Assembly: GCA_963716725.1 (NCBI GenBank)
Contig: CAVQUB010000013.1
Span: forward strand, 256,001 to 320,000
DNA from: an uncultured delta proteobacterium
GTDB lineage: Bacteria; Myxococcota_A; Polyangia; Polyangiales; Polyangiaceae
Length of the DNA: 64,000 nt
Direction of reading: 5' to 3'
The first letter of the stretch is position 1; the number at the start of each line of letters is the position of its first letter. A model generated the notes under the pieces. It did no database searches. It had not been told where the DNA came from and saw nothing but the letters and a program-made list of their open reading frames with translations. Position numbers and translations under genes: made by a program. This document shows, in pieces, positions 5,205 to 48,868 of the stretch.

Positions 5205-7142
5205 ATGGGCACCATGAACTGGCCCGATGCGGACCTCCGCGCGGACTTCCTCACTGACAACTTGAGCGCCCTCGGCGCCTCCGCGGTCACCATCGAAAGG
5301 GTGCGCGCGGCTCGCTCCGCCGAGATCGTCGAGATCGAAGCGGGGATCGAGGTGGTGCGGATCGGCGGCACGGTGCTCGGCGCTCCGGCGGACGACTGGG
5401 GACTGGATCGCACCTGCCGCGTCGGCGGGCGGGCTCCGATCGTGGTGTTCGGCCTCGGGACCGGCGACACCGTCCGCTCCGTGCGTAGAGCGTCCGACGC
5501 GCCCGTGGTGGTCTACGAGCCGGACCCAAGCGTCGCTCGCGCGGTGCTCGAGCATGGACCGACCGACCTCGGCGACGCCGATCTGGTGTGCTCCCTCGAC
5601 GAGCTCTCACAACTCTGGTCCGGCCTCGCGCAGGACGAGGTCGGTGCGACCTTCGTTCGAACTCCGGGGTACCCCGAGCGATTTCCGATCGAACACTCCG
5701 CGCTCGAGGCAAAGCTCTCCGAGCTCGTCGACCGCAGCGGCATCAACCGCAATACCCACCAGCAACGTGCCCGCGCCTGGGTCGAGCACCTGTTCGCAAA
5801 CGTCCGCTGCTTGCTCGACGCTTCGCCCTTTGTCGCGCTTCGTGGCCGACTCGAGGGTGTTCCCGCGTTCATCGTCGGAGCCGGCCCATCGTTGGCAAAA
5901 AACGCTGCCTTGCTGCGCGCCGCGACGGAGAAGGGCCTTGTCATCGCCACCAACTCGAGCGGCCGGGTGCTCGCGAAACACGAGGTCGAACCCCAGGTCT
6001 TCTGCTGCATCGAGTCGGTGGACGTCTCTCAGCTCATCGCCTCGCTGCCGTTCGTCGACCGCGCCATTCGCGCCTTCAGCCTGTCCGCGCACCCAAACAC
6101 GTTCCGCACCGGAAGAGGGCCGCTGTTCCCGGTGTGGGAGGCGATCCCGGAGCTCGCAGATCCGATGATGCGCCTGACCGGAGCGCCCGGGCTCGCGGTT
6201 TCGGGGAGCGTCTCGACGCTGGCCTTCTCCCTGGCCTACGCCCTCGGCTGCTCGCCCATCGTATTGGTGGGCCAAGACCTGGCGTACACCGGCCAGCGCA
6301 CCCACGCCGAGGGTAGCGCGTTTGATGCGTCGCGCGTCGAGATCGGCGCCGACGGTAGGCTTCGCATCCAGTGGTGCGCGACCTCGCGCGGCACCCGCGC
6401 GCCAGGTGATCCACCCCTGCACGCTGAAGAGCGCCTCGAGGAGGTGACGGCGTGGGGTGGGCAAGGAAGCGTGCCCTCGGGCCAGAGCTTCGCCGGCCCC
6501 CGCGCATGGCTGAGCGGGGCCGCCGAGCAGCTGCGGCAGCAGTCGTCGAAGACCGAACTCATCAACGCCACGGAGGGCGGCTCGCGCATCGAGGGCTTTA
6601 CGGAGCGCCGGCTGGCCGAGGTGATCGCCGAGCAACCGGATCGCGGCCTCAGCGTCGACGAACTGTGCCGCATGGCAAAGGACTCTGCTCGGGTGGTCGA
6701 CCGCCCCGAATTGTGCGCGTGGGCCGTGGACGAGCGGCAGCGGGTCACTCGGGTTCGAGAGCAGGCACGCCGAACACGCCGAGCCGCCCAGCGCGCGCGA
6801 AGCGCCATCGAGCGCGACCGCCCGCAGGAGGTGACACGGATGTTCGAGCGCCTCGAGGAGTCCGAGACTGCGCTCAGAGCTGCGGTGGAAGCCGCCCCGA
6901 TGGTGAACGCCTGGGCCTTCGCCGAGGTCGAGGCGGCGCTCCAATCGAACGCGCCGACAACAGCCGACGACGCCCGACAGGACGCCCTCTCGTCAGTAGG
7001 CCGAGAGGTCGCGCTGGCGCGAGCCATCGAGGACGCGGCGCGAGCCATCGAGGACAAGCTCAGCCAGATCATTCGAGAGCCCGGCGCGGCTCTTGTCGAG
7101 CCAACCCAGAGCCAAGGAGAACCCGACCCATGCCGATTGTGA
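5205..7142 (+). CDS. maf: Motility-associated factor (Maf) family flagellin glycosyltransferase (MptE-like domain)
   Basis: AFIVGAGPSLAKN, GSVSTLAFSLAYALGCSPIVLVGQDLAY, INATEGGSRIEG; directly upstream of the flagellins. Confidence 0.88.
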   Translation: MGTMNWPDADLRADFLTDNLSALGASAVTIERVRAARSAEIVEIEAGIEVVRIGGTVLGAPADDWGLDRTCRVGGRAPIVVFGLGTGDTVRSVRRASDAPVVVYEPDPSVARAVLEHGPTDLGDADLVCSLDELSQLWSGLAQDEVGATFVRTPGYPERFPIEHSALEAKLSELVDRSGINRNTHQQRARAWVEHLFANVRCLLDASPFVALRGRLEGVPAFIVGAGPSLAKNAALLRAATEKGLVIATNSSGRVLAKHEVEPQVFCCIESVDVSQLIASLPFVDRAIRAFSLSAHPNTFRTGRGPLFPVWEAIPELADPMMRLTGAPGLAVSGSVSTLAFSLAYALGCSPIVLVGQDLAYTGQRTHAEGSAFDASRVEIGADGRLRIQWCATSRGTRAPGDPPLHAEERLEEVTAWGGQGSVPSGQSFAGPRAWLSGAAEQLRQQSSKTELINATEGGSRIEGFTERRLAEVIAEQPDRGLSVDELCRMAKDSARVVDRPELCAWAVDERQRVTRVREQARRTRRAAQRARSAIERDRPQEVTRMFERLEESETALRAAVEAAPMVNAWAFAEVEAALQSNAPTTADDARQDALSSVGREVALARAIEDAARAIEDKLSQIIREPGAALVEPTQSQGEPDPCRL

Positions 7143-7966
7143 CTCAAACCAACGTCGCCTCGCTCGAGACGCAGAAGAACCTGTTTCGCTCCCAGGCAGC
7201 GCTTCAGAAGAGCTTTGCTCGGCTGTCGAGCGGTCACCGGATCAACAGCGCGGCGGACGACGCCGCCGGACTCGCCATCAGCGAGAGCATGCGAACCCAG
7301 ATTCGGTCCTATGTGGTCGCCGAGCGCAACGCCAGCGACGCCATCAGCATGACTCAGACCGCCGAGGGGGCACTGGGAGAGATGCACTCGATCCTCGGGC
7401 GCCTGCGCGAGCTCGCCATGCAGGGCTCCAACGGTTCGATGACGGCCACCGACCGCGGCTACCTGAGCACCGAGTTTTCCGCGCTGCAGGCGGAGATGAC
7501 CCGCATCCAGGCGTCTAGCAAGTTCAACGGCAAGTCGCTGCTCTCGGCGACCGCTTCGAGCCTGACCTTTCAGGTCGGCTTGAACAACACCGCGAGCGAC
7601 AAAGTCACCTTGACTTTCGGCGGACTGGGCCTGACGACGCTGCTTTCTGCTACCACCACGCTGTCTGGAGCGGGAACGACCGCTTCGCTGACGGCTCTGG
7701 GCCGCATCGACTCGGCGCTCGCGACGATTTCGACCAGCCGCGCGCGTTTTGGCGCCGCCATGAACCGTTTCGAGGTCGTGACCTCGTCGATCCAGACCAT
7801 GCGGCTGAACCTCTCCGCCGCCAACTCCCGCATCCGCGACGTCGACGTCGCCGAAGAAACGTCGGCCTTGGCCAGGAATCAGGTGCTCTCTCAGGCTGGC
7901 GTCGCCGTCCTCGCCCAGGCCAATCAGCTCCCCCAGCTGGCCCTGAGCCTGGTGGGCGGTGGCTGA
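7130..7966 (+). CDS. fliC: Flagellin 1 (278 aa, D0/D1 only)
   Basis: RLSSGHRINSAADDAAGLAISE; SRIRDVDVAEE...QVLSQAG..VLAQANQ; AAGGAG RBS inside the maf 3' end. Confidence 0.97.
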   Translation: MPIVTQTNVASLETQKNLFRSQAALQKSFARLSSGHRINSAADDAAGLAISESMRTQIRSYVVAERNASDAISMTQTAEGALGEMHSILGRLRELAMQGSNGSMTATDRGYLSTEFSALQAEMTRIQASSKFNGKSLLSATASSLTFQVGLNNTASDKVTLTFGGLGLTTLLSATTTLSGAGTTASLTALGRIDSALATISTSRARFGAAMNRFEVVTSSIQTMRLNLSAANSRIRDVDVAEETSALARNQVLSQAGVAVLAQANQLPQLALSLVGGG

Positions 7967-7977
7967 CAGCAAAAGCT

Positions 7978-8006
7978 CCTCAAGGCCGGGTGGGCCGGTC
8001 CGTTCA
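7978..8006 (+). promoter_or_regulatory. Putative sigma28-type promoter of flagellin 2, CCTCAAG-N15-CCGTTCA
   Basis: Identical boxes and spacing to the motif upstream of flgM. Confidence 0.72.
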
Positions 8007-8082
8007 GGCTCATTGAACGGGCAGCGACGCCCCCCGCGCCTCCTCCGGGAGTCGCGGCGACCTCCAAGAAGGAGCAATTCCC

Positions 8083-8913
8083 ATGGCCGTAAATATTCAG
8101 ACCAACGTAGCCTCACTCGAAGCTCAGAAGAACGTCTCTCGCAACCAGCGGGCCCTGCAGTCGAGCTTTGCCAAGCTCTCCAGCGGGTTTCGCGTCAACA
8201 ACGCCTCCGACGACGCCGCCGGCCTCGCCATCAGCGAGAGCATGAAGTCGCAGATTCGGTCCTACACGGTGGCCGAACGCAACGCAGGCGACGCTGTCAG
8301 CATGGCGCAGACGGCCGAAGGCGCCCTCGGCGAGGTCCACGAGATCCTCGGCCGCATGCGCGAACTGGCGATGCAGTCGTCCAACGGCGGCCTGACGTCG
8401 ACGGATCGCGGCTACATCAACACCGAGTTCGGCTCCCTCCAGGCGGAAGTCACTCGCATCCAGGGCTCGGCGAAGTTCAACGGCAACAAGCTGGTGAACG
8501 CGACCGCGAGCACGGTCACCTTCCAGGTCGGCCTCAACAACACCGCCTCGGACAAGATCTCGGTCACCTTCGGCGGAGTCGGCTTCACCACGCTGCTCGC
8601 CTCCACCACGGTGCTCTCCGGCGCCGGGGCCACTGCGTCACTCACGGCCCTCGGCCGCATCGACAGCGCCATCGCGACCACCTCGGGAGCGCGCTCGAAG
8701 TTCGGCTCCGCGATGAACCGTCTGCAGGTGGCGACCAACAACATCCAGACCATGCGACTCAACCTCAGCGGAGCGAACTCGCGCATCCGAGACGTCGACG
8801 TCGCCGACGAGACCTCGAAGATGTCCCGCAACCAGGTCCTGTCCCAAGCAGGCATCTCGGTCCTCGCTCAGGCGAACCAACTGCCGCAGCTGGCCTTCGG
8901 CCTCATCGGCTGA
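8083..8913 (+). CDS. fliC: Flagellin 2 (276 aa, D0/D1 only)
   Basis: KLSSGFRVNNASDDAAGLAISE; SRIRDVDVADE; AAGGAG RBS. Confidence 0.97.
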   Translation: MAVNIQTNVASLEAQKNVSRNQRALQSSFAKLSSGFRVNNASDDAAGLAISESMKSQIRSYTVAERNAGDAVSMAQTAEGALGEVHEILGRMRELAMQSSNGGLTSTDRGYINTEFGSLQAEVTRIQGSAKFNGNKLVNATASTVTFQVGLNNTASDKISVTFGGVGFTTLLASTTVLSGAGATASLTALGRIDSAIATTSGARSKFGSAMNRLQVATNNIQTMRLNLSGANSRIRDVDVADETSKMSRNQVLSQAGISVLAQANQLPQLAFGLIG

Positions 8914-10340: not shown

Positions 10341-10739
10341 ATGCACCCCGCCGCCGTTCGCTATCAGCAGGTCCGCGCCACGACCTCGAGCCCGGGCGAA
10401 ATCCTGATCGCGCTCTACGACGGGCTGTTCCGCTTTCTCAAAGGAGCGCGCCTCCAGCTGGAGCGCGGGGAGCGCGCTCGCGCTGCCGAGCTCTTGTCGA
10501 AGTCCTACGCCATCGTCAGCGAACTCTACATCGCCCTCGACCACTCGGTGCATCCCGAGTTGTGCGCGAATCTGGAGGGGCTCTACGGCTTCGCGATGGA
10601 CCGAATCACGCAAGCGAGCCGGCAGGGCTCCGTCGACTGCATCGACGAAGTGGTGCGCGTGCTGACGCCAATGCGCGATGCATGGCGGCTCGCGGTCCCC
10701 AAGGCAGTACTGGACGCGGCGAAGGATGGGGGAGAGTAG
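10341..10739 (+). CDS. fliS: Flagellin export chaperone
   Basis: YQQV..TTSSPGEILIALYDG...NLEGLYGF...MRDAW. Confidence 0.93.
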   Translation: MHPAAVRYQQVRATTSSPGEILIALYDGLFRFLKGARLQLERGERARAAELLSKSYAIVSELYIALDHSVHPELCANLEGLYGFAMDRITQASRQGSVDCIDEVVRVLTPMRDAWRLAVPKAVLDAAKDGGE

Positions 10740-10741
10740 TG

Positions 10742-12079
10742 ATGTCGGCCAGTGTATCGCGAGTCAGCAGCGCGCCTCTCGACGGGGTGTTGCCGCCCAG
10801 GTACGTGGCAGGCGGTAGTCGCTCGGAGGTCTTCGCCCACTTCCCGTCGGGTCTCATCGTCCGCGCTGGGCGCGGCCGCGCGCGGACCTACCCCGGGCTG
10901 CGCGGGGCGGCCCCGCCGACCACGGTGTTTTATGGGATCGCATGCCAGCTTCCCGACGTCGAAAGCGTATTGGACCTGGGCTGTGGCTCCGGGGACGGGA
11001 CGCGCCGGCTGTGCGCTAGATTCCCTTCCGTCACGGGCCTCGACTCGAGCGCGGAGGCGTTGGTCTTCGCTCGCGAATGGTGCCCGCGGGCCCACTTCGC
11101 TCAGGCCGACGCCACCGGGGCGCTCGATGCACCGCTCTTCGATGCAGCCGTCGTCGCCGATCTGCTGGGGCATTTGAGAGATCCCGAGGGCGCACTCCGC
11201 GGCCTGCGCAATCGACTCGCTCCCCAAGGACGACTGTTGGTGGCCGAGCCTCGGGCCATTCCCCTCCAACGGCTCGCCAGTCCGGCACGCCGCGCCCACT
11301 CTCTGCGGTCGCTCGAAGCACTGCTGGTCCGAGGGGGATTCGCCGTGCGCGACTGGATCTCCAAACGAGGCAGCTTCGTTGCTTGCATCGCCGAACCCGA
11401 CACGAGCGCTGGCGCCACAGCGCTGCTCTCGGGCCTGGATGCGCTCGCGGCGGGCGACGCCGCCGCCGCGCGCTCCGCCTTCGCGAGCGCCACCGAATAC
11501 GGCTCACGAGCCATCGCTTGCGAGGCGCTGCTGGCCAGCGCCCGAGCCGCGCTGGCCCTGGGCGAGGGCGACGTGGCTGCGCAGGCTTTGATGGCGGCGG
11601 CAGCGCTCGACAACGCCGACGCCCGGCCGCTGGCGGGACTGGCGGAACTGTCATTTTTGACCAACGACCTGCCGACGGCCCTTCGTCTCGGTCTCGATGC
11701 CGTGCAGCTGGAGGCTACCGAGCCCACCGCCGCGCGGGTCGCCGCGTTCGCCGCGCTCGCGCTCGACCATCGCGACGCGATGAGCGCCATCCGGGTCGCA
11801 AACAACTTGGCGCCGGACGACTTCGACGTGGCTCGCGCGCTCTCGGAGGCCGCGGCCTGCCTGGGCGATGGCGGCCCAGGGGTGGCGGCGCTGGAGCGAG
11901 TACGTTCCTATGGAGACGACGTCGGCGCCGCGTTGCATGTCGAGCTGGCCAGGGCGCTGTTTGCCCAAGGCCGGCGCGCCGATGCCGAGCTCGAGGCCCG
12001 ACTTGCGCGCGCGCGCCACCCCGACGACCCCGAGGTGATCGAGCTGTGGAACTCGCTCCCGGGTCGAGTCGCGCACTGA
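10742..12079 (+). CDS. Class I SAM-dependent methyltransferase fused to TPR-like repeats
   Basis: VLDLGCGSG motif I, HLRDP motif, Ala/Leu-rich helical repeats in the C-terminal half. Confidence 0.75.
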   Translation: MSASVSRVSSAPLDGVLPPRYVAGGSRSEVFAHFPSGLIVRAGRGRARTYPGLRGAAPPTTVFYGIACQLPDVESVLDLGCGSGDGTRRLCARFPSVTGLDSSAEALVFAREWCPRAHFAQADATGALDAPLFDAAVVADLLGHLRDPEGALRGLRNRLAPQGRLLVAEPRAIPLQRLASPARRAHSLRSLEALLVRGGFAVRDWISKRGSFVACIAEPDTSAGATALLSGLDALAAGDAAAARSAFASATEYGSRAIACEALLASARAALALGEGDVAAQALMAAAALDNADARPLAGLAELSFLTNDLPTALRLGLDAVQLEATEPTAARVAAFAALALDHRDAMSAIRVANNLAPDDFDVARALSEAAACLGDGGPGVAALERVRSYGDDVGAALHVELARALFAQGRRADAELEARLARARHPDDPEVIELWNSLPGRVAH

Positions 12080-12164
12080 GTTCAGTCGACGCGCCGCCGG
12101 CGGGCGAGGGCGCCCCAGGGCCGCGCATGCACGGCAGGTCGCGCTCGACGAGCCACGCGGCCAC

Positions 12165-13679
12165 TCACGCCACGCACTGCTCGGTCAGCTCGCTGGGCCT
12201 GGGCGCCTCGGATCGCTCGACTTCGACCCGGTTCCTCCCGCCGCGCTTCGCGACATAGAGTGCGGAGTCAGCTCGATTGAAGAGCTCCGACGAGTCAGGC
12301 GGCCCTGCCATGGTGACGGCCACGCCGAAACTGGCGGTGACCGGCAAGGAGGTGCCGTCCTCCAACACGACGGGAGCGGCAGCGATGGCGTTGCGCAAGC
12401 GCTCGGCGACGACGCGCGCGCCCTCGATTTCCGTCACCGGCAGGAGCACGACGAACTCCTCGCCGCCGTAGCGGGCCGGCATGTCACCGGCTCGGAGCGC
12501 GCCGCGCAGCCTTTGCGCCACCGCGCGCAGGGTCTCGTCGCCCGCGGCGTGCCCGTAGGTGTCGTTGACGCGCTTGAAGAGGTCGATGTCCACCATGATC
12601 AGCGAAACGGGCGTCTTTGCGCGGACCGAGCGCGCGAGCTCGCGGGCCAACGCCTCGCGAAACGCTCGATTGTTGGGCAACTCTGTCAGCGAATCCGTGG
12701 CGGCCGCCGCCGAGAGCCGCGCGTTGGCGGACCGCAGCTCGTCGGCCACCAGCTCTTTCTCCGCCATGACCTGCTCGAGTCTGCGCAGGACCGACTCGTA
12801 CTCCAGATTCAGATTGACCAATGCCTGATGCGCGCCTGCGGCCAGCTCCCCGATGCTGCGCTGCGGCTCCAGCTCGCGGTCCAGGAGCGAAGCCGCAGCC
12901 ACAAACTCGACCGGAAAACCCGCTACCAGGTTCCCCGCTTCTTGCCGGTTCAGTCCTACGAGCTCGAGACAAGCCAGGGCGTCATCAGTTGTGGCCCCGT
13001 GAGACTCGAAGACGCCCGCCAAACGTTCGGCGGCCCACGCGATTCGTCCCAGGGGGCTGTCGGGCGGCTCCGGAACATGGTGCATCCGGATCGCGTCCAC
13101 GACGTCGTCGGAGAGTCGAAACGATGACGCGAACTCCGCGCCGACCTCTGGGTGCGGTCGGATGCCGTCGGCTCGCTCCAGGAGCGGCCGGTGGTGAGCG
13201 GGTCGCCGCGCCAGCTCGAGGGCACCTTGAAAGTCTTCCCGGGCGCGCACCAGTAGCCCCACCTCCAAGAACAACCCTAGGGTGAAGGCCGCGTCCGGAT
13301 CACAGAGCCGCGTCGCGCGCGCCACGCACCGAGCCGCCGCCGCCCGTCGGATGCAGTTCGCGAGGAGCACCACGCCGTCGGCAGTTGGGACCATGTCGGA
13401 GAGCGCGAGGCTGAGCCCCAGGTTGCGCAGGCTCCGAATCCCGATCAGGCTCACTGCCTGGCGAACGTCCGTGACGCGGCGCGACAGCCCAAACGCGGCG
13501 CTGTTCACGCAGGTCAAGAGCTTCGCGGCGAAGGCCGGATCGCTCTGGGCGAGGGACGAGAGCTTCGACACCTCGACGTCCGGCTTGATCGACTCCTCCA
13601 CGATTTGCGCCGCGATCAGCGCGATGGGACCGGAGGCTGGCTGGCTGTTGGTCGACACCCTCTTTTCCCGCCTTCCCAA
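12165..13679 (-). CDS. HDOD-GGDEF diguanylate cyclase
   Basis: DPAFAAKLL..VNSAAFGL (HDOD), coiled coil, DSLTELPNNR, DIDLFKRVNDTYGHAAGD, RAGD I-site, GGEEF. Confidence 0.92.
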   Translation of the reverse strand: MGRREKRVSTNSQPASGPIALIAAQIVEESIKPDVEVSKLSSLAQSDPAFAAKLLTCVNSAAFGLSRRVTDVRQAVSLIGIRSLRNLGLSLALSDMVPTADGVVLLANCIRRAAAARCVARATRLCDPDAAFTLGLFLEVGLLVRAREDFQGALELARRPAHHRPLLERADGIRPHPEVGAEFASSFRLSDDVVDAIRMHHVPEPPDSPLGRIAWAAERLAGVFESHGATTDDALACLELVGLNRQEAGNLVAGFPVEFVAAASLLDRELEPQRSIGELAAGAHQALVNLNLEYESVLRRLEQVMAEKELVADELRSANARLSAAAATDSLTELPNNRAFREALARELARSVRAKTPVSLIMVDIDLFKRVNDTYGHAAGDETLRAVAQRLRGALRAGDMPARYGGEEFVVLLPVTEIEGARVVAERLRNAIAAAPVVLEDGTSLPVTASFGVAVTMAGPPDSSELFNRADSALYVAKRGGRNRVEVERSEAPRPSELTEQCVA

Positions 13680-13691
13680 GCCCGAACGGCA

Positions 13692-14504
13692 CTAGCGGGC
13701 CGAGCTTGAGGCCGGCGCTGTCGCAGGCCCGCCGTCCGGACGCTCCGGCTCCTCCGAGGTCGCCGCGATCAGAACCACATCCACCCGGCGATTCTGCGCC
13801 CGCCCCTCCGACGAGTCGTTGGCCGCGACCGGGCGGAACTCGCCGTAGCCCGCCGCCGCGAACCGCTCGGGCGCCATCTTACACGCCTCGACGAAGTAAC
13901 GAACGACCGAAGTCGACCGCCCCGCCGACAGCTCCCAGTTGGATTGGTACCGGATGTTCTTGATCGGCACGTTGTCGGTGTGCCCCTCCACGCGGAGCTC
14001 GAGTTCGCGGCCCTTGAGGGCGTCGGCGATGCCCGAAAGCGCGGCCTGGCCGTCGTCGTTCACTCGAGTATCTCCACTCTCGAAGAGCAGCTGCTCGGGA
14101 AGCCGCAGCACCAGCTCGTCCCGATACTCGATGACCTGCAGGTCTCGCAGCTCCGGCACGGACTTGAATTTCTCTCTCAGCTCTCGGCCCAGCGGGGACT
14201 CGTCGACGCGAACACGCGAGTTGTGTCCGAGCACCGCCTTGCCCACCGGCTTGACGCTCTGTCCCACCAGCGGCTGGATGCGCTTGTCCGCTGGCATGAA
14301 CCCCTTTCCTCCCTTGGCGTCGAAGACCTGCCACTCCAGGGCGTCGGTGAACGACTCGGTGAAGCGCCCGACCTGCTTGGTGTCCACCTGGGACACCGCG
14401 AACATGACCACGAAGAACGCGAAGAGCAGGGTGATGAAGTCTGCGTAGCTGATCAGCCAGCGCTCGTGATTGACGTGCTCCGGCGGCTTCTTTTTGCGAG
14501 CCAT
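13692..14504 (-). CDS. motB: Flagellar stator protein MotB
   Basis: WLISYADFITLLFAFFVVMF; OmpA-like VEGHTDN, NWELS, NRRV. Confidence 0.96.
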   Translation of the reverse strand: MARKKKPPEHVNHERWLISYADFITLLFAFFVVMFAVSQVDTKQVGRFTESFTDALEWQVFDAKGGKGFMPADKRIQPLVGQSVKPVGKAVLGHNSRVRVDESPLGRELREKFKSVPELRDLQVIEYRDELVLRLPEQLLFESGDTRVNDDGQAALSGIADALKGRELELRVEGHTDNVPIKNIRYQSNWELSAGRSTSVVRYFVEACKMAPERFAAAGYGEFRPVAANDSSEGRAQNRRVDVVLIAATSEEPERPDGGPATAPASSSAR

Positions 14505-14514
14505 GGCCGCCCGC

Positions 14515-15324
14515 TCAAGCCGCCACGCTCTTCGGCGCGGCCCCGGCGGGAGCGCCGTCTTTGCCCTTGGCGCTGGGGCCCTCGTGGGGCACGAGGCCTT
14601 CCAGGCGCTCGCGCAGCACCATTGGGTTCACTCCTTGCTGGATACCGAGTGCACCCTCCAACATCAGGGTCAGGGTCTGAACATGATCGCGGGTCCGGAT
14701 CTTCATCTTGCCGCCGCAAGGGAGCGCGATGATGTTCGCGATGGCAACGCCGTAGATGGTCGCGACGAAGGCCGTCGCGATGCCATGTCCGACCTTCTCG
14801 ATGTCCGACAGGTTCTGCATCACCTGGATCAGACCGAGCACGGCGCCGATGATGCCAACCGTCGGGGCGTAGCCGCCAATGGCTTCGAACACCTTCGCCA
14901 CGTCCTCGCCTTGTTCCTCGGCATGGTCAATGGTGGATTCCAGGGTCTGCGTCATCTGATTGCTGTCGGCGCCGTCGACCGCCAGCATCAGCGCTCGCGC
15001 CAAGAAGGGATCGGACGCGTTTGGTGCCACCGACTCGAGCGCCAGGATCCCGTCGCGACGCGCGGTGGTCGCGTAGCCCACGATCTCCTCGATCAGCTCC
15101 TTGGCTCGGCTCTTGGGAGGGTTGATCACGAGCTTGAAGCTCTTCATCGCCCGCACGAAGGTGCCCATGGGGAACTGAAGCATGGTCGCACCGATGGTCC
15201 CACCAGCGACGATGCCGAACGCGATGGGGTTGAGAACCTGCGACATCTTGCCGCCTTCGAGCACGTTTCCGCCGAAGATGGCCAGCAAGCCCAACGCCAG
15301 TCCAAATATTGAGGCCTTGTCCAT
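14515..15324 (-). CDS. motA: Flagellar stator protein MotA
   Basis: ARRDGILALE, YAPTVGIIGAVLGLI, IATAFVATIYGV. Confidence 0.96.
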   Translation of the reverse strand: MDKASIFGLALGLLAIFGGNVLEGGKMSQVLNPIAFGIVAGGTIGATMLQFPMGTFVRAMKSFKLVINPPKSRAKELIEEIVGYATTARRDGILALESVAPNASDPFLARALMLAVDGADSNQMTQTLESTIDHAEEQGEDVAKVFEAIGGYAPTVGIIGAVLGLIQVMQNLSDIEKVGHGIATAFVATIYGVAIANIIALPCGGKMKIRTRDHVQTLTLMLEGALGIQQGVNPMVLRERLEGLVPHEGPSAKGKDGAPAGAAPKSVAA

Positions 15325-15325
15325 C

Positions 15326-15586
15326 TCACTCCTCGTCGTCTTTGCACTCGTCGAGCTGCTGGGTGACCTGTCTCGAAGGAGGGTGCGCGCTCCCCGGCCC
15401 TAGCGGTTGATGCACGGATCGACGGAAGTTCACGACCCTCGCCATCACCTCGTCGAGGGACTCCCGCACCATGATCCGATCCCCGTTCAAGAATTCCATA
15501 GTCGTATCCGGCGTCACCTCGATCCAGGTCACGAGGTCCGGGTTGATGGCGATCACGCCGCCATTGAGCCTTGTCAGTTGGATCAT
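15326..15586 (-). CDS. flbD: FlbD/SwrD family flagellar protein
   Basis: MIQLTRLNG...INPDLV..IEVTPDT...NG..I.VRES; upstream of motA. Confidence 0.9.
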   Translation of the reverse strand: MIQLTRLNGGVIAINPDLVTWIEVTPDTTMEFLNGDRIMVRESLDEVMARVVNFRRSVHQPLGPGSAHPPSRQVTQQLDECKDDEE

Positions 15587-16662
15587 GCTTCGGGTTTCCG
15601 GGTGAGCTCGGCCTCTACGACCTCGCAGATCGCGTGCCAGCTCAGAATGTGCAGCTCCTGGATGCGCGGCGTCGATGTCGACGGCGCGCGAAACCGGAGT
15701 TCGGCGACGTCGGCGACTCGACCGCCACTGGCGCCGGTGAACGCCACGGGGATCGCCCCGATCTCCCGGGCTGCCTCCAGTGCGCGCACGACGTTCTTGG
15801 ATTGTCCGCTGGTGCTGATGCCAACCACGACGTCACCCGGACGTCCGAGTCCACGCACCTGCCGCGCGAAGACCTCGTCGAAGCTCCAATCGTTGCCGAT
15901 GGCGGTCAAGATGGACGAATCGGTGGTGAGCGCGACGGCCGGCCACGGCTCGCGCTCACGCGAGAACCGTCCCACCAACTCGGCGGCCACGTGCTGGGCG
16001 TCCGCTGCGCTCCCGCCGTTGCCGCAGAACATCGCCTTTTTCCCGGTTGAGATAGCCCGAACCAGGACCCGCGCTATTTCGCACAGCGTCGGGGTCGCTT
16101 CTTCGAGCATGCGCTGGTGCGCTTCGAGGCTCTCGCCCAAGGCCGCAGCGATGCCCCGACTGCGCTCGATGAGGTCGGCGTCACGGCCGACGATGCGCAG
16201 GACAATCTCGACCGCCTCCGCCACGGCGCCCGAACCGCCAGAGCGCGTGAGAACGCGATCCGCTCGCTCTCTCGCCTGACGAGAGGCATCGGCGGGGGCC
16301 AATGCGAGCCCTACGCTCGCGAACGCGGCTGCATCGCGGTCGGCGTCCCCGACGAAACACACGGTGTCGAGTTCGGCGTGCATGTCCCGCGCGAGCTGGC
16401 GCAGCGCCGCAGCCTTGTCCTTGGCGCCGCGGATGACTCGCTCCGCGCCGGTTCGCTGCGCGATGACATCGACCAGCGGGCCCTCCTCGCCGGTCACCAG
16501 TGCGATCCGAAGCCCGGCCCGGCGGGCCGCCGTGAGCGCATCGAGATCGCGGAACGCGATTCCCTTGCTCTCTTCCCCACCCGGCCCCAGCTCGACGCGC
16601 CCGTCGGTGAGCACGCCATCCACGTCCAGCGCCAGCACTTCCAATACGGACTGGGAAATCAT
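15583..16662 (-). CDS. Fusion of KdsC-family HAD phosphatase and GmhA-type phosphoheptose isomerase (SIS)
   Basis: N-terminal LDVDGVLTDG...VGD..D...SGGSGAVAE; C-terminal CGNGGSAADAQHVAAEL, AIGND, ISTSG, RIQELH; alternative TTG start at 16677. Confidence 0.9.
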   Translation of the reverse strand: MISQSVLEVLALDVDGVLTDGRVELGPGGEESKGIAFRDLDALTAARRAGLRIALVTGEEGPLVDVIAQRTGAERVIRGAKDKAAALRQLARDMHAELDTVCFVGDADRDAAAFASVGLALAPADASRQARERADRVLTRSGGSGAVAEAVEIVLRIVGRDADLIERSRGIAAALGESLEAHQRMLEEATPTLCEIARVLVRAISTGKKAMFCGNGGSAADAQHVAAELVGRFSREREPWPAVALTTDSSILTAIGNDWSFDEVFARQVRGLGRPGDVVVGISTSGQSKNVVRALEAAREIGAIPVAFTGASGGRVADVAELRFRAPSTSTPRIQELHILSWHAICEVVEAELTRKPEA

Positions 16663-16673
16663 GGTTTTTCCAA

Positions 16674-17417
16674 TCAAGCCGGGCGCCGCAGTCGCGACAC
16701 AGGCGCCTGAGGCCTCCGCGAATTTGTCAGTGCACGCTCGAGCGACGGGATCTGATCGGGGTAATCCAAGTCGAGCACGCGTTCGAAGATGACGAAGGGG
16801 AGGATGAGCGCGCCGTTCATCGAGTCCTGCTCGAGCACCCGCGGTCGGAGCACGTCCACGTAGCCATTTCCGCGGTACACGGGCGGCAGCTGTTGGCGCG
16901 GCATGTTGTGGGCCTCCGGCAGGCCGGAGACCGCCAGAACTGGGCGTAGCCTGCCGCCGTCGATGCAGTACATCTTGTAGGGGGTGTGCTCGGCGAGCTC
17001 GACCGACCGTAGTGAGTCGGCCTCGGGGTGCTTGATCATCTCGTCGATACCCCTATCGACCACGGCAGCCTCACGCGCGGGCTGGGTCGGGCGCAGGTGA
17101 ACGACCAAGTCGGGTTGATAGCCCTCAGCCGCGAGCCAACCCAGCGCGTGGCGGAAGACCTGCAAATCGGTTGCCTCGTCGGTAGCGTGCTCGGCCGGTC
17201 GGCGAAACGGCACCTCTGCGCCGGCCTTGGTGGCAACGTCGGCGATCTCCGGATCGTCCGTCGAGACGATGGTGCGGGTGATCCGGCGCGACGCCAGTGC
17301 CGTCTCAATCGTGTGCACGATCAGCGCTTTGCCAGCGATCGGCAGCAGGTTCTTGCGGGGGATCCCCTTGGAGCCTCCGCGGGCGGGGATCAGCGCCAAT
17401 ACCTCGAGCGAGGTCAT
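16674..17417 (-). CDS. neuA: Acylneuraminate (ulosonate) cytidylyltransferase
   Basis: ALIPARGGSKGIPRKN, VSTDD, LRPTQP, PRQQLP. Confidence 0.9.
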   Translation of the reverse strand: MTSLEVLALIPARGGSKGIPRKNLLPIAGKALIVHTIETALASRRITRTIVSTDDPEIADVATKAGAEVPFRRPAEHATDEATDLQVFRHALGWLAAEGYQPDLVVHLRPTQPAREAAVVDRGIDEMIKHPEADSLRSVELAEHTPYKMYCIDGGRLRPVLAVSGLPEAHNMPRQQLPPVYRGNGYVDVLRPRVLEQDSMNGALILPFVIFERVLDLDYPDQIPSLERALTNSRRPQAPVSRLRRPA

Positions 17418-17422
17418 CTTCC

Positions 17423-18289
17423 TCACGCCACTCGCCGCAGCTTGTTCATGATCGGGACCTCGTCCGAGCTCACCGTCTTCACGCCGTCGCCGAGGGCTCG
17501 CTCGACGGCACGAATGTCTCGAACCAGCTTCATCAAGCCTTGGGGCTCGACGCTGGCGGCCTGGTCGCTGCCCCACATGGCGCGATCCAGGGTGATGTGG
17601 CGCTCGACCATGCAAGCGCCCATGGCCACGGCGGCGAGGGATGTCGCCAGGCCGACCTCGTGTCCGGAGTAGCCGACAGGCACCCCGTAGCGCTCGGCGA
17701 GTTTGGGGATCATCCGCAGATTCAGGTCTTCCAGCTTGGCGGGGTAGGCGCTGGTCGTGTGGAGCAGAACCAGGTTCTCGGTGCCGAGCTGTTCGACAGC
17801 GCGATCGACTTGCTCCGTGGTGCTCATCCCGGTGGACATGATCAGCGGCCGACCGGTTCGTCGATGGTGAGCGAGTAGCTTCTCGTCGGTGAGGCAGGCC
17901 GAAGCGATCTTGTAGGCGGGTGGATTGAACTGCTCGATGAAGTCGACGCTTCGCTCGTCCCAACACGACGCGAACCAGGTCATGCTCTTGTCACGGCAAT
18001 ACCGCTGCATTTCCCAGTACTGTCCGAGCCCGAACTCGAGGCCTCGTTTCAGATCGCCATTCGTCTTTCCGAAGGGACTCTCGCGGGGACGAGCCAGCTC
18101 TTCTTCGCCGTACACGATCTCGAGGGTTCGCTTCTGGAACTTGACAGCCTGGCAGCCAGCGATGGCAGCGACGTCGACCAGACGCCGCGCAATGTCGATG
18201 TCGCCGTTATGGTTGATGCCGATCTCGGCAATCACGTAGCAAGGGGACCCCTCACCGATGCGTGCTCCGTTGATGATGACCTCGGGCAT
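17423..18289 (-). CDS. neuB: NeuB-family ulosonate synthase, short form without C-terminal SAF domain (288 aa)
   Basis: IAEIGINHNGD, AVKFQKR, YKIASA, MSTGMST, GYSGHE, ERHITLDRAMWGSDQAAS; GGAGG RBS. Confidence 0.92.
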   Translation of the reverse strand: MPEVIINGARIGEGSPCYVIAEIGINHNGDIDIARRLVDVAAIAGCQAVKFQKRTLEIVYGEEELARPRESPFGKTNGDLKRGLEFGLGQYWEMQRYCRDKSMTWFASCWDERSVDFIEQFNPPAYKIASACLTDEKLLAHHRRTGRPLIMSTGMSTTEQVDRAVEQLGTENLVLLHTTSAYPAKLEDLNLRMIPKLAERYGVPVGYSGHEVGLATSLAAVAMGACMVERHITLDRAMWGSDQAASVEPQGLMKLVRDIRAVERALGDGVKTVSSDEVPIMNKLRRVA

Positions 18290-18316
18290 GAACTGATTCC
18301 TCCGAAGAAGGGCGTT

Positions 18317-18332
18317 TGCAACCGCCGTGCCG
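18317..18332 (-). promoter_or_regulatory. Putative sigma54 promoter (CGGCACGGCGGTTGCA) of the neuB-neuA-HAD/SIS-flbD-motAB operon
   Basis: Intergenic, near-consensus GGCACG-N4-TTGCA. Confidence 0.72.
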
Positions 18333-19115
18333 CTAGACGCGATCCGCTTCATCGCGACGGTCATTGCGATCCGACAGGATCCGGACCGCCGTTCGCCCCA
18401 CCTCGTCCGCCAGCGCCAATGCGCTGACAAAGGGAGTGTCCACCGGCGCAAGCTCGGTGCCGGAACGAGTCGGTGCAGCGAGCGCCCCCGGCAAACGGGT
18501 CGGGGCAACCCCGGGAGTTCCTCCAACAGCGTCGAATCCGGACTGCAGGGCGACTGCGGAGAGCTTGGCCACGGAGCGCGAATAGGCCCCGGCGTCGCCC
18601 GTGAAGTAGCCGCGGGACTTGAGGCCGCGGACAAACGCCGCTGGGTCTCCCTCCTTCGCCCCCTGAAGGGCCGCACCGTAGCGTCTCTCCAACAAGCCGA
18701 TGTAGTCGGCGGCACCTTCGTCCGCGCTTCGATATGCGCGGAAGCGATCGTGAATGACCCGTTCGCTCGCCCCGGAGCCCTCGCGCGTTCTCTGCACTAC
18801 GGAGAGCCCCGACGGACCGACGCCTTTGATCCCGCCGAAGTTGAAGTTGTACATGGATCCGCCACGCCCAGTTTCGTGCGCCCACTGTGCGACCAGTACC
18901 CCCATCGTCTCCCGGCTCGGTTGCTCGCCGAAGCGTGCGGTCCAGGCGCGTTCGAGCGCGGTTCGTGCCTCTTCACCCGACAGGGAGGTCCGGCGCACCG
19001 CGGCGGCACCGGCCCGTTCGAGTTCCAGGTCGAAGCCCGCCGCCGGTGGTGGCGGCCGCGGCACCGGCGCAGCGCGGGGCTCTGAGGCGACCACGGGGAC
19101 CACGCCGACGTTCAT
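18333..19115 (-). CDS. Stand-alone FlgJ-type peptidoglycan hydrolase (GH73 glucosaminidase domain)
   Basis: AQWAHETG, NFGGIKG, TRE, FRAYRS..EG..DY..LL..RY, LKSRGYFT. Confidence 0.85.
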   Translation of the reverse strand: MNVGVVPVVASEPRAAPVPRPPPPAAGFDLELERAGAAAVRRTSLSGEEARTALERAWTARFGEQPSRETMGVLVAQWAHETGRGGSMYNFNFGGIKGVGPSGLSVVQRTREGSGASERVIHDRFRAYRSADEGAADYIGLLERRYGAALQGAKEGDPAAFVRGLKSRGYFTGDAGAYSRSVAKLSAVALQSGFDAVGGTPGVAPTRLPGALAAPTRSGTELAPVDTPFVSALALADEVGRTAVRILSDRNDRRDEADRV

Positions 19116-19128
19116 GGCGAAAGTATTG

Positions 19129-19143
19129 GCAAGAAGTGCGCCA
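19129..19143 (-). promoter_or_regulatory. Putative sigma54 promoter (TGGCGCACTTCTTGC) of the muramidase gene
   Basis: TGGC-N7-TTGC, intergenic. Confidence 0.65.
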
Positions 19144-19273
19144 CCGCGGCTGCGCCGCAGTGGCTACCAGTCGGCGCCGCTCTGCCAGATCAGTGACGCG
19201 GGGGCCGTCAATTCCGCGGGCACTTCGGCTCCGGTCCTCGTGTCCGGAGATTCGCTCCCGGCCAAACGCGACC

Positions 19274-19289
19274 TGGCGTAAGCTTTGCT
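19274..19289 (+). promoter_or_regulatory. Putative sigma54 promoter (TGGCGTAAGCTTTGCT) of REC-HDOD/flgF
   Basis: TGGC-N7-TTGCT, intergenic, divergent from the 19129-19143 motif. Confidence 0.65.
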
Positions 19290-19302
19290 CGGTGGGGGCA
19301 TC

Positions 19303-20550
19303 ATGAGTGAAGCAATCGGGCGGGACGGACCCATTCAGGTCCTCCTGGTCGACGACGACCCACTTGTCCTCAAGAGCGTCGCGCGACTGCTCGGCAGCGT
19401 CGAGCCCAACTGGACCGTCGCCACAGCGGGCTCGGGGGAGGAGGCCATTGGGATCCTCGAGAAACAGCCCATAGATTTGGTCCTGTCGGATCTCAATCTG
19501 GGCGCAACGAACATGAGCGGCGCTGAGCTTCTCTCGTACGTACAGGAGCGCCACCCGGACGTCGTGCGGATCCTCCTGACGGGCCAAGCAACGCCGGAGA
19601 TGGCTCATCGTTCCCTGCCCGCGGCCCACTCGCTGCTACAGAAGCCCTTCGAGCGCCTGGAGCTCCACGCGAAGCTGCGACGGGCCGCCGAGCTGCGCGA
19701 GCTGCTGACGAACACCCGCATCCGGAGCCTGATCGGGTCGAGCAATCGGCTCCCCTCGCCCCCAAAGGTCTTCCACGAGGTGGCCGTGGCCCTGGCCGGA
19801 CGCCGCGCTGGAATGGAAGACGTCGCCTGCCTGATCGAAAGGGACGTCGCGCTCTCCGCGCAACTGATCCGCCTCGTGTCGTCCGCCTTCTTCGGTCTGC
19901 CACCGCGCGTGCGGAGCGTGCGCGGGGCCATCGCGTACTTGGGATTCAACACGGTCAAGACCCTCGTGCTCAGCGCGTCCATCGTCGAGCAATATCGAAC
20001 GACTCGGCCCGTCCGCGGTTTCGACCTCGACGGACTGCAAGCGCACGCGGTGGCCAGCGCCCATATCGCGCGCCAGGTGGTGGGGGAACCGGGCCTGACC
20101 GAGTCGGCCTTCAGCGCCGCGATGCTGCAGAACGTCGGCCAACTCCTGCTGGCGTCCCGGGCACCGGACGAATACTCCGAAGTGTTGATCCGCCAGCGCG
20201 AGGGCGCGCCGCCGGAGCAGGGCGAGGCCGACGTGTTCGGCGTCGCTCATCCGCAGATAGGCGCCTACCTGCTGGGCATATGGGGCCTGCCCAGCAGCTT
20301 GATCCGCGGGGTCCTCCACCATCACGAGGTTCAGCGCAGCGTGTCCTCCCGCATGGACGTGGCCCTAGCGGTGAACATCGCCGCGAAGCTGGCGAGCTCG
20401 CCGGACGCGCCGGCTCTGGACGACCCGGGAGATGACCCCTTCGTCATCGACCTCGCCCATTTGCGCGAACTGGGAGTGGCCCAGCTCTTGCCTGAGTGGC
20501 GTGAGACTGCCAGGCGCATGCTGGAGTCTAGCGGAGGAAATGATCGATGA
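19303..20550 (+). CDS. Response regulator, REC + HDOD
   Basis: VLLVDDD, LVLSD, LLTG, QKP; LPSPP, DVALSAQLIRLVSSAFFG, HPQIGAYLLGIWGLP. Confidence 0.9.
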   Translation: MSEAIGRDGPIQVLLVDDDPLVLKSVARLLGSVEPNWTVATAGSGEEAIGILEKQPIDLVLSDLNLGATNMSGAELLSYVQERHPDVVRILLTGQATPEMAHRSLPAAHSLLQKPFERLELHAKLRRAAELRELLTNTRIRSLIGSSNRLPSPPKVFHEVAVALAGRRAGMEDVACLIERDVALSAQLIRLVSSAFFGLPPRVRSVRGAIAYLGFNTVKTLVLSASIVEQYRTTRPVRGFDLDGLQAHAVASAHIARQVVGEPGLTESAFSAAMLQNVGQLLLASRAPDEYSEVLIRQREGAPPEQGEADVFGVAHPQIGAYLLGIWGLPSSLIRGVLHHHEVQRSVSSRMDVALAVNIAAKLASSPDAPALDDPGDDPFVIDLAHLRELGVAQLLPEWRETARRMLESSGGNDR

Positions 20551-32521: not shown

Positions 32522-33988
32522 CTCATGATTGATCGGATCCCATCTGGGACCGGGCAGCTCGGAAGCCGATCTCGTAGTCGAGGAGCTTCTGGTAGCCCCG
32601 TCCTAACGTTTGCCACCCGGGTGCGCCGTTGTTCTTCAGATGCCCGCCGAGTCGCGCGACAGCGAATAGCGCTTGCTCAATGGTCTGCGGGACGGCCGGG
32701 AGGCGGAGCTTGAACTTTATGAGGAGCAACTGGGGCTCACTCAGGATCGTTGTTGCCGGTTGCTCGGGTGCGACGCGGGCTAACGAGCGCATGAGCAACA
32801 GGCGCCAGGCGATGGGCAGGAACACGGCGAGCGCGTTGCTCAGTGCCTGATACGACTCGAGCTGTCGTTTCTCGAGAGAACACCCTTGCTTGAGTGCCTT
32901 GAAGAACTCTTCGATCACCCACCGACTGCGGTAACAGTCCACGACGGTCGCGAGTTCGGCGACGGTGTCAATGGGTTCGGTAGTGAGCAGCACCCACTCG
33001 ACCGACTGCTCGCCTTCTGGTGGTTGGAGTTCCCAGACTCGAACCACGTTGAGTTCGATGCTGCGCGTCTCATGTCGAGTGTTGCGGGGGCGCAGCACAG
33101 TCAAACGTTTGCCTGCCACGGCGACCTCCGCGCTCCGGGCGTTGCGAGACGGGTGCTCTTTTGCAGCATGCGCGCGACTGCTCGGTTTCCTCGATGACAC
33201 CGAGATCGTGCGAAAAAACTGCGGTTCGAGCGTTGAGATTGCACTGCGCAAGCAGATGCCTATTTCCTCAGTTACTCGGTCGTGAGCCGAACGGATGACG
33301 TAGCGCGCACCGAGTTCCTGCGCCTTCGCCAGGACCTCGAAAATGTCCGCTTCGCGGTCCATCACGTGAATGAGCGCGCTGCCGGGGCAGCGTGCATGGA
33401 CGGCCTCGAGCATGGCCGGCCAGCGCAGTGATTCGCGCTCGGGGTCTCTCCGACTGACAGACCGGCGGCGCCCGCGTCCACCCTTGTGTACGAGGCGGAC
33501 GTGTCGCTGTAGACCCAGAACTCCGAGTGGCACTCGCTCCTCGCCGGGAAGCACGGCCAGCGCCACGTGTGCGAGAAACCCCTGGCTGCCGCCGGACGTG
33601 ACGCCCAACCCAGCTCGCCGACTGGCGCCGCCGAGCGATACTTCGGTCGTATCGTGCGCGACGATACACAGGCCAGCGGAACTCACACGCTCCACCGTCG
33701 CCGACAGGTGCGGGTCAAGGATCTGCTCCGCGTCGAACTGCTCGTTGCGCAGGAATCGGTAGACTCCCTCAAGCTCGGACGGAGTGTCGACAGCCTGCGG
33801 AAACCCAACACCGGGCGCCGCCATCAGTTTCTCAGCGAGCCAACCGAGCCTGTCACTGCGCCGCTTATCGCCGAGCTGAGAGCCCTCGAACTCGTCCGAA
33901 ATCGACCGCCCTAACCATTCTGTTGCCGGCATTTCTCCCGTAGATCACACGCGCCGTCCGCTCGCAATGAGATGTGTTTGATCATGAG
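32522..33988 (-). mobile_element. IS4-family (IS50/Tn5-like) insertion sequence, 1467 bp
   Basis: Imperfect terminal IRs starting CTCATGAT; 8-bp target duplication CCGACGGG at 32514-32521 and 33989-33996. Confidence 0.9.
32523..33932 (-). CDS. IS4-family DDE transposase
   Basis: LGDKRR..R N-terminal DNA-binding motif, HDTT, DREAD, WVLLTT, YRSRWVIEEFFKALKQGC, LGG...PGWQTL.RG dimerisation motif. Confidence 0.95.
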   Translation of the reverse strand: MPATEWLGRSISDEFEGSQLGDKRRSDRLGWLAEKLMAAPGVGFPQAVDTPSELEGVYRFLRNEQFDAEQILDPHLSATVERVSSAGLCIVAHDTTEVSLGGASRRAGLGVTSGGSQGFLAHVALAVLPGEERVPLGVLGLQRHVRLVHKGGRGRRRSVSRRDPERESLRWPAMLEAVHARCPGSALIHVMDREADIFEVLAKAQELGARYVIRSAHDRVTEEIGICLRSAISTLEPQFFRTISVSSRKPSSRAHAAKEHPSRNARSAEVAVAGKRLTVLRPRNTRHETRSIELNVVRVWELQPPEGEQSVEWVLLTTEPIDTVAELATVVDCYRSRWVIEEFFKALKQGCSLEKRQLESYQALSNALAVFLPIAWRLLLMRSLARVAPEQPATTILSEPQLLLIKFKLRLPAVPQTIEQALFAVARLGGHLKNNGAPGWQTLGRGYQKLLDYEIGFRAARSQMGSDQS

Positions 33989-40796: not shown

Positions 40797-40920
40797 TCGC
40801 GGTGCGCCCTGCTGCGCGCGCGAGGATCCACATGCGTCCAACCTGCCTCAACTGCGCGAGACTCATCAGCGACTCATTCGGCGCTTGAAAGTTTTGCGGA
40901 CGCCGCTACCTTCGTCAGTC

Positions 40921-48843: not shown

Positions 48844-48868
48844 CTGCCGATGGAGTACCCTTCGAGCG

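Follow-up and report, generated by a model that had tools for sequence, protein, structure and literature searches.

A 64,000-nucleotide (nt) stretch of contig CAVQUB010000013.1 (positions 256,001–320,000 of the forward strand, assembly GCA_963716725.1, from an uncultured, myxobacterium-like organism; hereafter the window) carries a real, conserved and previously undescribed gene cassette that encodes a short NeuB, a NeuA and a protein in which a KdsC-type HAD phosphatase is fused to a GmhA-type SIS isomerase. At a probability of roughly 0.5, the most probable single explanation of this cassette is a heptose-fed pathway in the style of 3-deoxy-D-manno-octulosonic acid (Kdo) and 2-keto-3-deoxynononic acid (Kdn) synthesis that would place a 3-deoxy-deculosonic acid, a ten-carbon sugar akin to sialic acid, on flagellin. 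The GmhA domain would convert sedoheptulose-7-phosphate (sedoheptulose-7-P) to D-glycero-D-manno-heptose-7-P, which the NeuB, lacking a SAF domain, would condense with phosphoenolpyruvate (PEP) to 3-deoxy-dec-2-ulosonate 10-phosphate, i.e., a Kdn skeleton plus one CHOH unit. The KdsC-type HAD domain would then strip the phosphate, NeuA would form the cytidine monophosphate (CMP)-sugar and the glycosyltransferase Maf would transfer the sugar to two flagellins. In a sub-variant with the same product, the HAD domain would dephosphorylate heptose-7-P first and NeuB would then take the free heptose. The reading builds on domain identities, catalytic motifs, operon structure, linkage in other genomes and gene fusions that we observed directly, and from these we infer substrates, product and acceptor. 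An earlier note on this DNA had proposed such a route; its anatomy and its placement of the GmhA domain stand, whereas its chemistry is still inferred. The genes and domains concerned are the following.

17423–18289, minus strand: neuB, 288 amino acids, Pfam PF03102
16674–17417, minus strand: neuA, 247 amino acids, Pfam PF02348 (CTP_transf_3)
15583–16662, minus strand: HAD-SIS fusion gene, ATG start, with an alternative TTG start at 16677
16183–16662, minus strand: HAD half of the fusion (residues 1–160), cap-less KdsC-type HAD phosphatase
15583–16155, minus strand: SIS half of the fusion (residues 170–359 and stop codon), GmhA-type SIS isomerase

Judged by its residues, the SIS half looks like an ordinary sedoheptulose-7-P isomerase. 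It matches Pfam SIS_2 (PF13580, E 2e-26) and the NCBIfam models for phosphoheptose isomerase (NF010546, 214.9 bits) and gmhA (TIGR00441, 195.2 bits, cut-off 209.45), and its E values against the GmhA structures 1x92 (Pseudomonas aeruginosa), 5i01 and 2xbl run from 3.5e-50 (1x92) to 6.7e-47. The sub-cut-off gmhA score might be taken as a sign of divergence. We rejected this, since canonical GmhA domains in fusions with GmhB or HddC have similar scores (178–205 bits) and also fall below the cut-off, which is thus uninformative for fused domains. All 15 fusion proteins aligned share E228, Q335, H343 and D258, residues that we take to map onto the catalytic positions of E. coli GmhA. Passages of PMC4697000 describe an E-Q-H catalytic triad plus Asp94 in GmhA and the lack of this Glu in DiaA; as the catalytic Glu is present here, a DiaA-type or inactive SIS half was rejected.

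We further compared two hand-picked sets of SIS domains, 22 with NeuB linkage or a fused KdsC-type HAD domain and 14 with a linked or fused heptose-pathway partner (HldE, GmhB, GHMP kinase, GT9, PfkB, CTP_transf_like). The same conserved residue occupies 40 columns in both sets, and the comparison of these 22 and 14 domains showed neither a column with differing conserved residues nor one conserved in a single set. A quick tree built from 79 SIS domains places the HAD-fused domains (SH-aLRT 91) and the Chloroflexota NeuB-linked domains (SH-aLRT 98) in a clade each, and both clades are nested in ordinary GmhAs without long branches. The NeuB-linked label requires 3 changes on this tree versus a mean of 10.5 when shuffled. 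The intact GmhA domain claimed at the outset is thus borne out by the kept catalytic residues, the structure matches and the absence of any group-specific column.

The HAD half matches Pfam PF00702/PF08282 (HAD) and, among NCBIfam models, KdsC TIGR01670 (97.6 bits, cut-off 106.95) and Kdn-9-P phosphatase NF058599 (74.1 bits, cut-off 180). Its E values are 4e-24 to about 1e-23 against solved KdsC structures and about 1e-15 against BT1713 (3e81). An assignment to GmhB was rejected, because it is the KdsC and Kdn-9-P phosphatase models that match, no GmhB model is among the NCBIfam matches shown for this half, and true GmhB-GmhA fusions do match GmhB models. The HAD motif residues D13, D15, T57, K81, D106 and D110 are invariant in the alignment of 15 fusion proteins, and so is E59, which turns the TGR of KdsC into TGE. 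Of the five solved structures shown, the four named KdsC enzymes have GGRGAVRE or GGNGAVRE where the HAD half reads GGSGAVAE, and TGR where it reads TGE. Residues 7–157 align without net gap to residues 4–154 of 3e81, with E59 falling on position 56, which we take to be the specificity-determining Glu of BT1713. The label of a KdsC-type HAD phosphatase therefore needs qualification: KdsC models and structures do match, yet the score stays below the cut-off and TGE stands where KdsC has TGR. By sequence, the domain has a KdsC-family fold and is not a typical Kdo-8-P phosphatase.

NeuB consists of a single Pfam domain, PF03102 (E 5.2e-77, full model covered); it has no SAF domain (PF08666) and ends 5 nt before neuA. 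It scores 253.5 bits with the NCBIfam model NeuB_NnaB TIGR03569 (cut-off 399.65) and 211.4 bits with PseI (cut-off 340.25), and its closest solved structure is 6ncs, a short NeuB of 290 amino acids (E 1.3e-40). In Neisseria meningitidis NeuB, the SAF domain provides a substrate-binding Arg. The aligned short NeuBs all end in a KLRR(V) tail (17426–17440 in the window) and 6ncs ends in LRR; this tail may take over the role of the arginine from the SAF domain. The motifs KFQKRT and RPRESPFG..NGDLKR are common to the aligned short NeuBs and missing from the SAF-bearing NeuB of a Chloroflexota locus (L004, see below). A phosphate-binding role of these basic residues and of the KLRRV tail is only a lead. 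According to passages of PMC8208679, SAF-less NeuBs are an environmental minority of about 30% of sequences. The best NCBIfam match of NeuA is PseF (113.9 bits, cut-off 205.7), and its translation contains the motif PARGGSKG.

To look for genes of other sugar pathways, we scanned 66 open reading frames (ORFs) of the window with Pfam and ran tblastn with queries from other loci. None of the 66 ORFs has an Epimerase_2 (NeuC), DegT aminotransferase, PfkB or GHMP kinase, NTP_transferase or GT9 domain, and HldE, GmhB, GHMP kinase, GT9, NTP-transferase and NeuC gave no tblastn match in the 64 kb. The sole exception in the tblastn search was a weak short-chain dehydrogenase/reductase (SDR) match at 46235–46714, a GalE-like epimerase far from the operon. 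A second NeuB or NeuA, or a gene for pseudaminic acid (Pse) or legionaminic acid (Leg) synthesis, was likewise not found in the window. The GmhA domain is accordingly not accompanied there by heptose kinase, GmhB and nucleotidyltransferase as partners, and both methods bear out the first impression that NeuC, Pse/Leg genes, heptose kinase and nucleotidyltransferase are missing from this stretch.

A single search of species-representative genomes, run with the fusion as query, returned 80 loci. The full fusion is present in six of them, five in Myxococcales/Polyangiaceae-type metagenome-assembled genomes (MAGs; L001, L002, L003, L005, L006) and one in Chloroflexota (L004), and short neuB and neuA adjoin it in five of these six; L003 is cut at the contig end. 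In all, ten loci besides the window, from Myxococcota and Chloroflexota, hold linked cassette genes, and the NeuBs of nine of them are 67–89% identical to that of the window. L006, a Polyangiaceae MAG, mirrors the window with flgJ-like, neuB, neuA, fusion, flbD, motA and motB genes (proteins 69–92% identical), with maf and flagellins nearby and with the fusion translationally coupled to flbD, as in the window. L001, L002 and L005 carry, amid flagellar genes, neuB, a xylose-isomerase-like TIM barrel gene, a Gfo/Idh/MocA oxidoreductase gene, neuA, an SDR gene and the fusion. By tblastn, the flgJ-like gene is also found upstream of neuB in L001, L002, L005 and L006, and maf adjoins flagellin genes also in L003, L005 and L006.

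In Chloroflexota, L004 combines neuA, neuB, SDR, a gene of unknown function and the fusion with a separate canonical set of NeuB plus SAF, NeuC and NeuA. Four further Chloroflexota loci (L019, L029, L034, L042) have a stand-alone gmhA, each with neuB within 10 kb. The full-length neuB of L019, L029 and L034 is 67–69% identical to that of the window, and the neuB of L042 is in two pieces (67–71%). L019, L029 and L034 also hold neuA genes, a KdsC-type HAD (fused to neuA in L034) and TIM barrel, Gfo/Idh/MocA and SDR genes. The Chloroflexota cassette lies amid Wzt, glycosyltransferase and methyltransferase genes, not flagellar ones; in L034 the neighbours are glycosyltransferase and methyltransferase genes. 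A second short NeuB paralogue, 54–57% identical to the window NeuB, is encoded in L019 (10695–11552), L029 (8645–9502) and L034 (14063–14920), and a third cytidylyltransferase is present in L029 and L034. This suggests that a single locus yields two different ulosonic acids.

Around the cassette genes of the 11 linked loci (the window and ten others), no heptose kinase, GmhB or heptosyltransferase was detected within 10 kb, and the lone nucleotidyltransferase-like match in the ten other loci was weak (26% identity, L042). Among 14 other gmhA loci, five adjoin HldE, GmhB, GHMP kinase, NTP-transferase or GT9, and nine are without a pathway neighbour. The extra SDR of the relatives is PtmA-like (NF006619, 176.7 bits; FlagModPtmA, 114.5 bits) and always lies directly upstream of gmhA. 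The extra genes occupy 6439–8432 and 9175–9996 in L001; across the relatives, the TIM barrel is weakly L-ribulose-5-phosphate 3-epimerase-like and the Gfo protein is IolG-like (compare PtmF). TIM barrel, Gfo/Idh/MocA and PtmA-like SDR genes are absent from the window by tblastn, and L006 has none of them either. This points to a minimal form of the cassette in the window and L006; since most related loci add three extra enzymes, the usual product of the family may be a further modified sugar.

The same activities are repeatedly joined in single proteins. At least 120 homologues of the fusion, about 360 amino acids long and 59–99% identical, were found and, where named, are called 'SIS domain-containing protein [Polyangiaceae bacterium]'. 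HAD-GmhA fusions form many 50%-identity clusters, and the full-length relatives reach as low as about 32% identity. In the ESM Atlas, clusters that combine SIS_2 with Hydrolase_3 occur most often in Myxococcota, Bacillota and Thermodesulfobacteriota and are separate from those named heptose-1,7-bisphosphate phosphatase. Both domain orders occur, HAD-SIS as in the window and SIS-HAD (P0125, P0143, P0156, P0149). KdsC/Kdn-9-P phosphatase models match all seven HAD-GmhA fusions tested and GmhB models none of them; GmhB models match four of four GmhB-type GmhA fusions.

Among 120 long NeuB relatives listed, three are NeuB-GmhA fusions, two in the order NeuB-SIS (P0274, P0279) and one in the order SIS-NeuB (P0303). 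These are 55–58% identical to the window NeuB, score 199–206 bits with the gmhA model and show the catalytic motifs. Another 22 of the 120 join NeuB to a Maf-type PF01973 domain, i.e., a synthase to its presumed transferase, which ties this NeuB clade to Maf; these proteins (P0273, P0275, P0276 and 19 more) have about 550 amino acids, and two are named from Tepidisphaeraceae. Most of the others are NeuA(-HAD)-NeuB fusions from actinomycetes, among them Streptosporangium and Nonomuraea. Each pair among the four activities therefore occurs fused somewhere, and the isomerase is fused to the presumed user of its product. Linkage in two phyla, independent fusions and the lack of ordinary heptose-activation genes strongly support the assignment of the GmhA domain to the NeuB/NeuA pathway.

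In the window, the cassette is part of a unit of eight minus-strand genes arranged head to tail. The remaining genes of this unit and the glycosylation-related flagellar genes are:

18333–19115, minus strand: flgJ-like glucosaminidase, Pfam PF01832, first gene of the unit
15326–15586, minus strand: flbD, Pfam PF06289
14515–15324, minus strand: motA, Pfam MotA_ExbB/MotA_N
13692–14504, minus strand: motB, Pfam MotB_plug/OmpA
12165–13679, minus strand: HDOD-GGDEF gene, last gene of the motility operon
5205–7142, plus strand: maf, Pfam PF01973 MptE-like (E 9.5e-28), NCBIfam PseD domain (73 bits)
7130–7966, plus strand: flagellin gene 1, Pfam Flagellin_N and Flagellin_C
8083–8913, plus strand: flagellin gene 2, Pfam Flagellin_N and Flagellin_C

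The sequence leaves 43 nt between the flgJ-like gene and neuB, 5 nt between neuB and neuA and 11 nt between neuA and the fusion gene. The flbD ATG overlaps the fusion stop codon by 4 nt (ATGA), and motA, motB and the HDOD-GGDEF gene follow flbD at gaps of 1–12 nt. A scan of 11800–19700 for terminator-like and promoter-like sites found none. Pfam and NCBIfam domains together with this spacing confirm that short neuB, neuA and the KdsC-type HAD/GmhA fusion form one operon that runs into flbD-motAB. On the plus strand, flgH, flgI, flgM, flgK, flgL, csrA, maf and the two flagellin genes are followed by fliD and fliS. The gene called maf encodes a PF01973 domain and adjoins the flagellin genes, and the described abutment proved to be a 13-nt overlap of its end with the start of flagellin gene 1. 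Maf is the presumed flagellin glycosyltransferase, and the two flagellins are the presumed acceptors.

The flagellar gene set as such (flgH/I/M/K/L, csrA, maf, two flagellins, fliD, fliS, flbD, motAB and a rod gene) lies at 1–24500 of the window and in L001–L006. Polyangiaceae and Myxococcales are classically seen as non-flagellated gliders; the closest relatives of the genome that hosts this set are labelled Polyangiaceae/Myxococcales MAGs. A receiver-HDOD gene (19285–20550, plus strand) is divergent from the start of the motility operon, and this gene and the terminal HDOD-GGDEF gene suggest cyclic di-GMP control of the flagellar unit. A class I methyltransferase gene with a long alanine-rich C-terminal extension (10562–12079, plus strand) adjoins fliS, as a methyltransferase gene likewise does in L001 (18648–19976); these enzymes could methylate flagellin or its glycan.

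The main rival of the heptose route is a Kdn pathway, which we consider unlikely. NeuB would then act on mannose-6-P and PEP, the HAD half would be a Kdn-9-P phosphatase, NeuA would yield CMP-Kdn and the GmhA-like domain would make mannose-6-P from fructose-6-P, i.e., perform the same ketose-to-manno-aldose chemistry one carbon shorter. We are aware of no report that GmhA acts on fructose-6-P, and the full-text literature searched held no paper on Kdn together with phosphoheptose isomerase. The remaining steps are established: passages of PMC6200933 describe, for Bacteroides thetaiotaomicron (BT1714/BT1713) and Prymnesium parvum, a NeuB-family synthase that uses a phosphorylated manno-aldose and PEP, a cap-less KdsC-like HAD phosphatase and activation by a CMP-Kdn synthetase. 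The match of the HAD half to the Kdn-9-P phosphatase model and its alignment to BT1713 also speak for Kdn, as does the roughly 60% identity of the window NeuB to GmhA-less actinomycete fusions. However, the known Kdn clusters need no dedicated isomerase, whereas here the phosphatase, and in other proteins NeuB, carries a fused GmhA domain, and the SIS domain neither differs in any conserved column from heptose-pathway GmhA domains nor scores differently. Mannose-6-P is a common metabolite, heptose-7-P is not, and a dedicated, repeatedly fused isomerase would therefore make more sense in a heptose route. Linkage in two phyla, the fusions, the missing heptose-activation genes and the ordinary-looking GmhA together favour the ten-carbon product over Kdn, and we counted the departure of the HAD half from KdsC at the TGR arginine (E59) on the same side.

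Several observations weigh against the heptose route. The NeuB domains of the GmhA-less actinomycete NeuA-HAD-NeuB fusions are 57–61% identical to the window NeuB, and these triple fusions may be Kdn enzymes. No feature of the NeuB sequence separates the use of heptose-7-P from that of mannose-6-P. In passages of PMC6200933, the Prymnesium Kdn-9-P synthase took mannose-6-P alone among seven sugars, a panel that did not include heptose-7-P; because it was so strictly specific, the specificity of NeuB cannot be guessed. The NCBIfam scores of all three proteins lie below the curated cut-offs, which corrects the earlier note. The visible genome comprises 64 kb, and genes for Pse/Leg synthesis or heptose activation may be located outside it. 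Of the ten related loci, eight have a Gfo/Idh/MocA oxidoreductase and a PtmA-like SDR, and six of these eight also have the TIM barrel gene; as these genes are absent here, the pathway may need steps not seen in the window. Finally, the term 'deculosonic' was not found in the full-text literature searched. This literature also yielded nothing for sedoheptulose with nonulosonic acid and cytidylyltransferase, nothing relevant for GmhA with NeuB and flagellin or for heptose with NeuB and KdsC, and no description of the pathway in the searches made.

It is quite improbable that two routes merely meet in one glycan, with NeuB/NeuA making a nine-carbon acid from another precursor and GmhA feeding nucleotide-heptose synthesis by way of a kinase and a nucleotidyltransferase encoded outside the window, so that the genes cluster only because both sugars enter the same glycan. 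The first step of nucleotide-heptose synthesis (GmhA, HldE/HddA, GmhB, HddC) is the only established role of GmhA, from which the window SIS domain is indistinguishable by scores, catalytic residues and conserved columns. Heptose genes are moreover often scattered, as the nine of 14 gmhA loci without pathway neighbours illustrate, and 64 kb is all that is visible of this genome. Unlike a nucleotide-heptose locus, however, the window has no kinase, GmhB-type phosphatase, nucleotidyltransferase or heptosyltransferase, and its fused phosphatase is from another HAD subfamily: the GmhA partner was KdsC-type in each of the seven fusions tested, while genuine heptose-pathway fusions use GmhB. The direct fusion of GmhA to NeuB in three protein clusters and the lack of heptose genes around the 11 linked loci, apart from the weak match in L042, likewise argue against two separate routes. 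Even less probable, in our view, is a cassette that does not serve flagellin, with flagellin bearing Pse or Leg made elsewhere (or nothing) and the cassette sugar entering another surface polymer. The surroundings of the Chloroflexota cassette would fit this, and characterised Maf proteins are generally known to use Pse or Leg donors. Yet the cassette sits among flagellar genes in L001, L002, L003, L005 and L006 as well as in the window, and in the window and L006 its translation is coupled to that of flbD. No other NeuB/NeuA or Pse/Leg gene accompanies it in the 64 kb; NeuB-Maf domain fusions also occur within this very NeuB clade.

The heptose route shares parts with several known systems. 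The Kdo pathway proceeds through KdsD, KdsA, KdsC and KdsB, and has in common with the window a SIS-domain isomerase, the condensation of PEP with an aldose phosphate, a KdsC-family phosphatase and CMP activation. It differs in that the window synthase is NeuB-type rather than KdsA-type, the isomerase is a GmhA-type SIS_2 protein and not KdsD, the phosphatase has Glu at the TGR arginine of KdsC and no lipopolysaccharide genes are nearby. As in Maf-dependent Pse/Leg glycosylation of flagellin in Campylobacter, Helicobacter and Plesiomonas, maf stands beside the flagellins and NeuB/NeuA homologues are encoded in a flagellar locus; the relatives of the cassette further add a PtmA-like SDR and a Gfo/Idh/MocA oxidoreductase. 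In legionaminic acid clusters, PtmA (254 amino acids) and PtmF (326 amino acids, 'oxidoreductase') accompany the cytidylyltransferase, as listed in Table 5 of PMC4481668. Unlike Pse/Leg systems, the window has no dehydratase, aminotransferase, N-acetyltransferase or NeuC/LegG-type epimerase, and the product should therefore bear no amino groups. CMP-linked C10 ulosonic acids have been described by mass spectrometry in Magnetospirillum gryphiswaldense in passages of bioRxiv 10.64898/2026.04.20.719630. They are likewise bacterial CMP-linked alpha-keto acids with a backbone of more than nine carbons; they carry two N-acetyl groups (Pse/Leg-like) and those passages name no genes, whereas the window sugar is predicted to be a non-aminated polyhydroxy acid.

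Elsewhere in the window, which has a G+C content of 67%, an IS4/Tn5-type transposase gene (Tnp_DNA_bind and DDE_Tnp_1; 32523–33944, minus strand) lies in a stretch with a G+C fraction of about 0.635 (30–34 kb, versus about 0.67 elsewhere). The secA gene (37645–40888, plus strand) falls into two ORFs that overlap and lie in different frames (37645–39375 and 38918–40888, shift near 39045), which is a frameshift or assembly error in an essential gene. A fusion of a Ser/Thr protein kinase with a Macro (ADP-ribose-binding) domain is encoded at 48788–50341 (plus strand).

If the heptose route is correct, the series of PEP-aldose condensation products, i.e., 3-deoxy-D-arabino-heptulosonate 7-phosphate (DAHP, C7), Kdo (C8) and Kdn or N-acetylneuraminic acid (Neu5Ac, C9), would be extended by a C10 member that has a CMP-donor and a transferase of its own and forms a sugar class beyond the nonulosonic acids. 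It would also provide a genetic handle on 'higher-carbon' ulosonic acids, which so far are unexplained mass-spectrometry signals only. The conservative outcome, Kdn on flagellin made via a dedicated GmhA-like isomerase, would also be new as far as the literature searched shows, since the titles and abstract openings of papers that bring together Kdn, flagellin, glycosylation and Maf revealed no report of it. With odds that we place slightly short of even, the cassette would be the first route to a ten-carbon 3-deoxy-ulosonic acid to be defined at the genetic level, serving Maf and flagellin in flagellated Polyangiaceae-like bacteria and, with three extra tailoring enzymes, surface polysaccharides in Chloroflexota.

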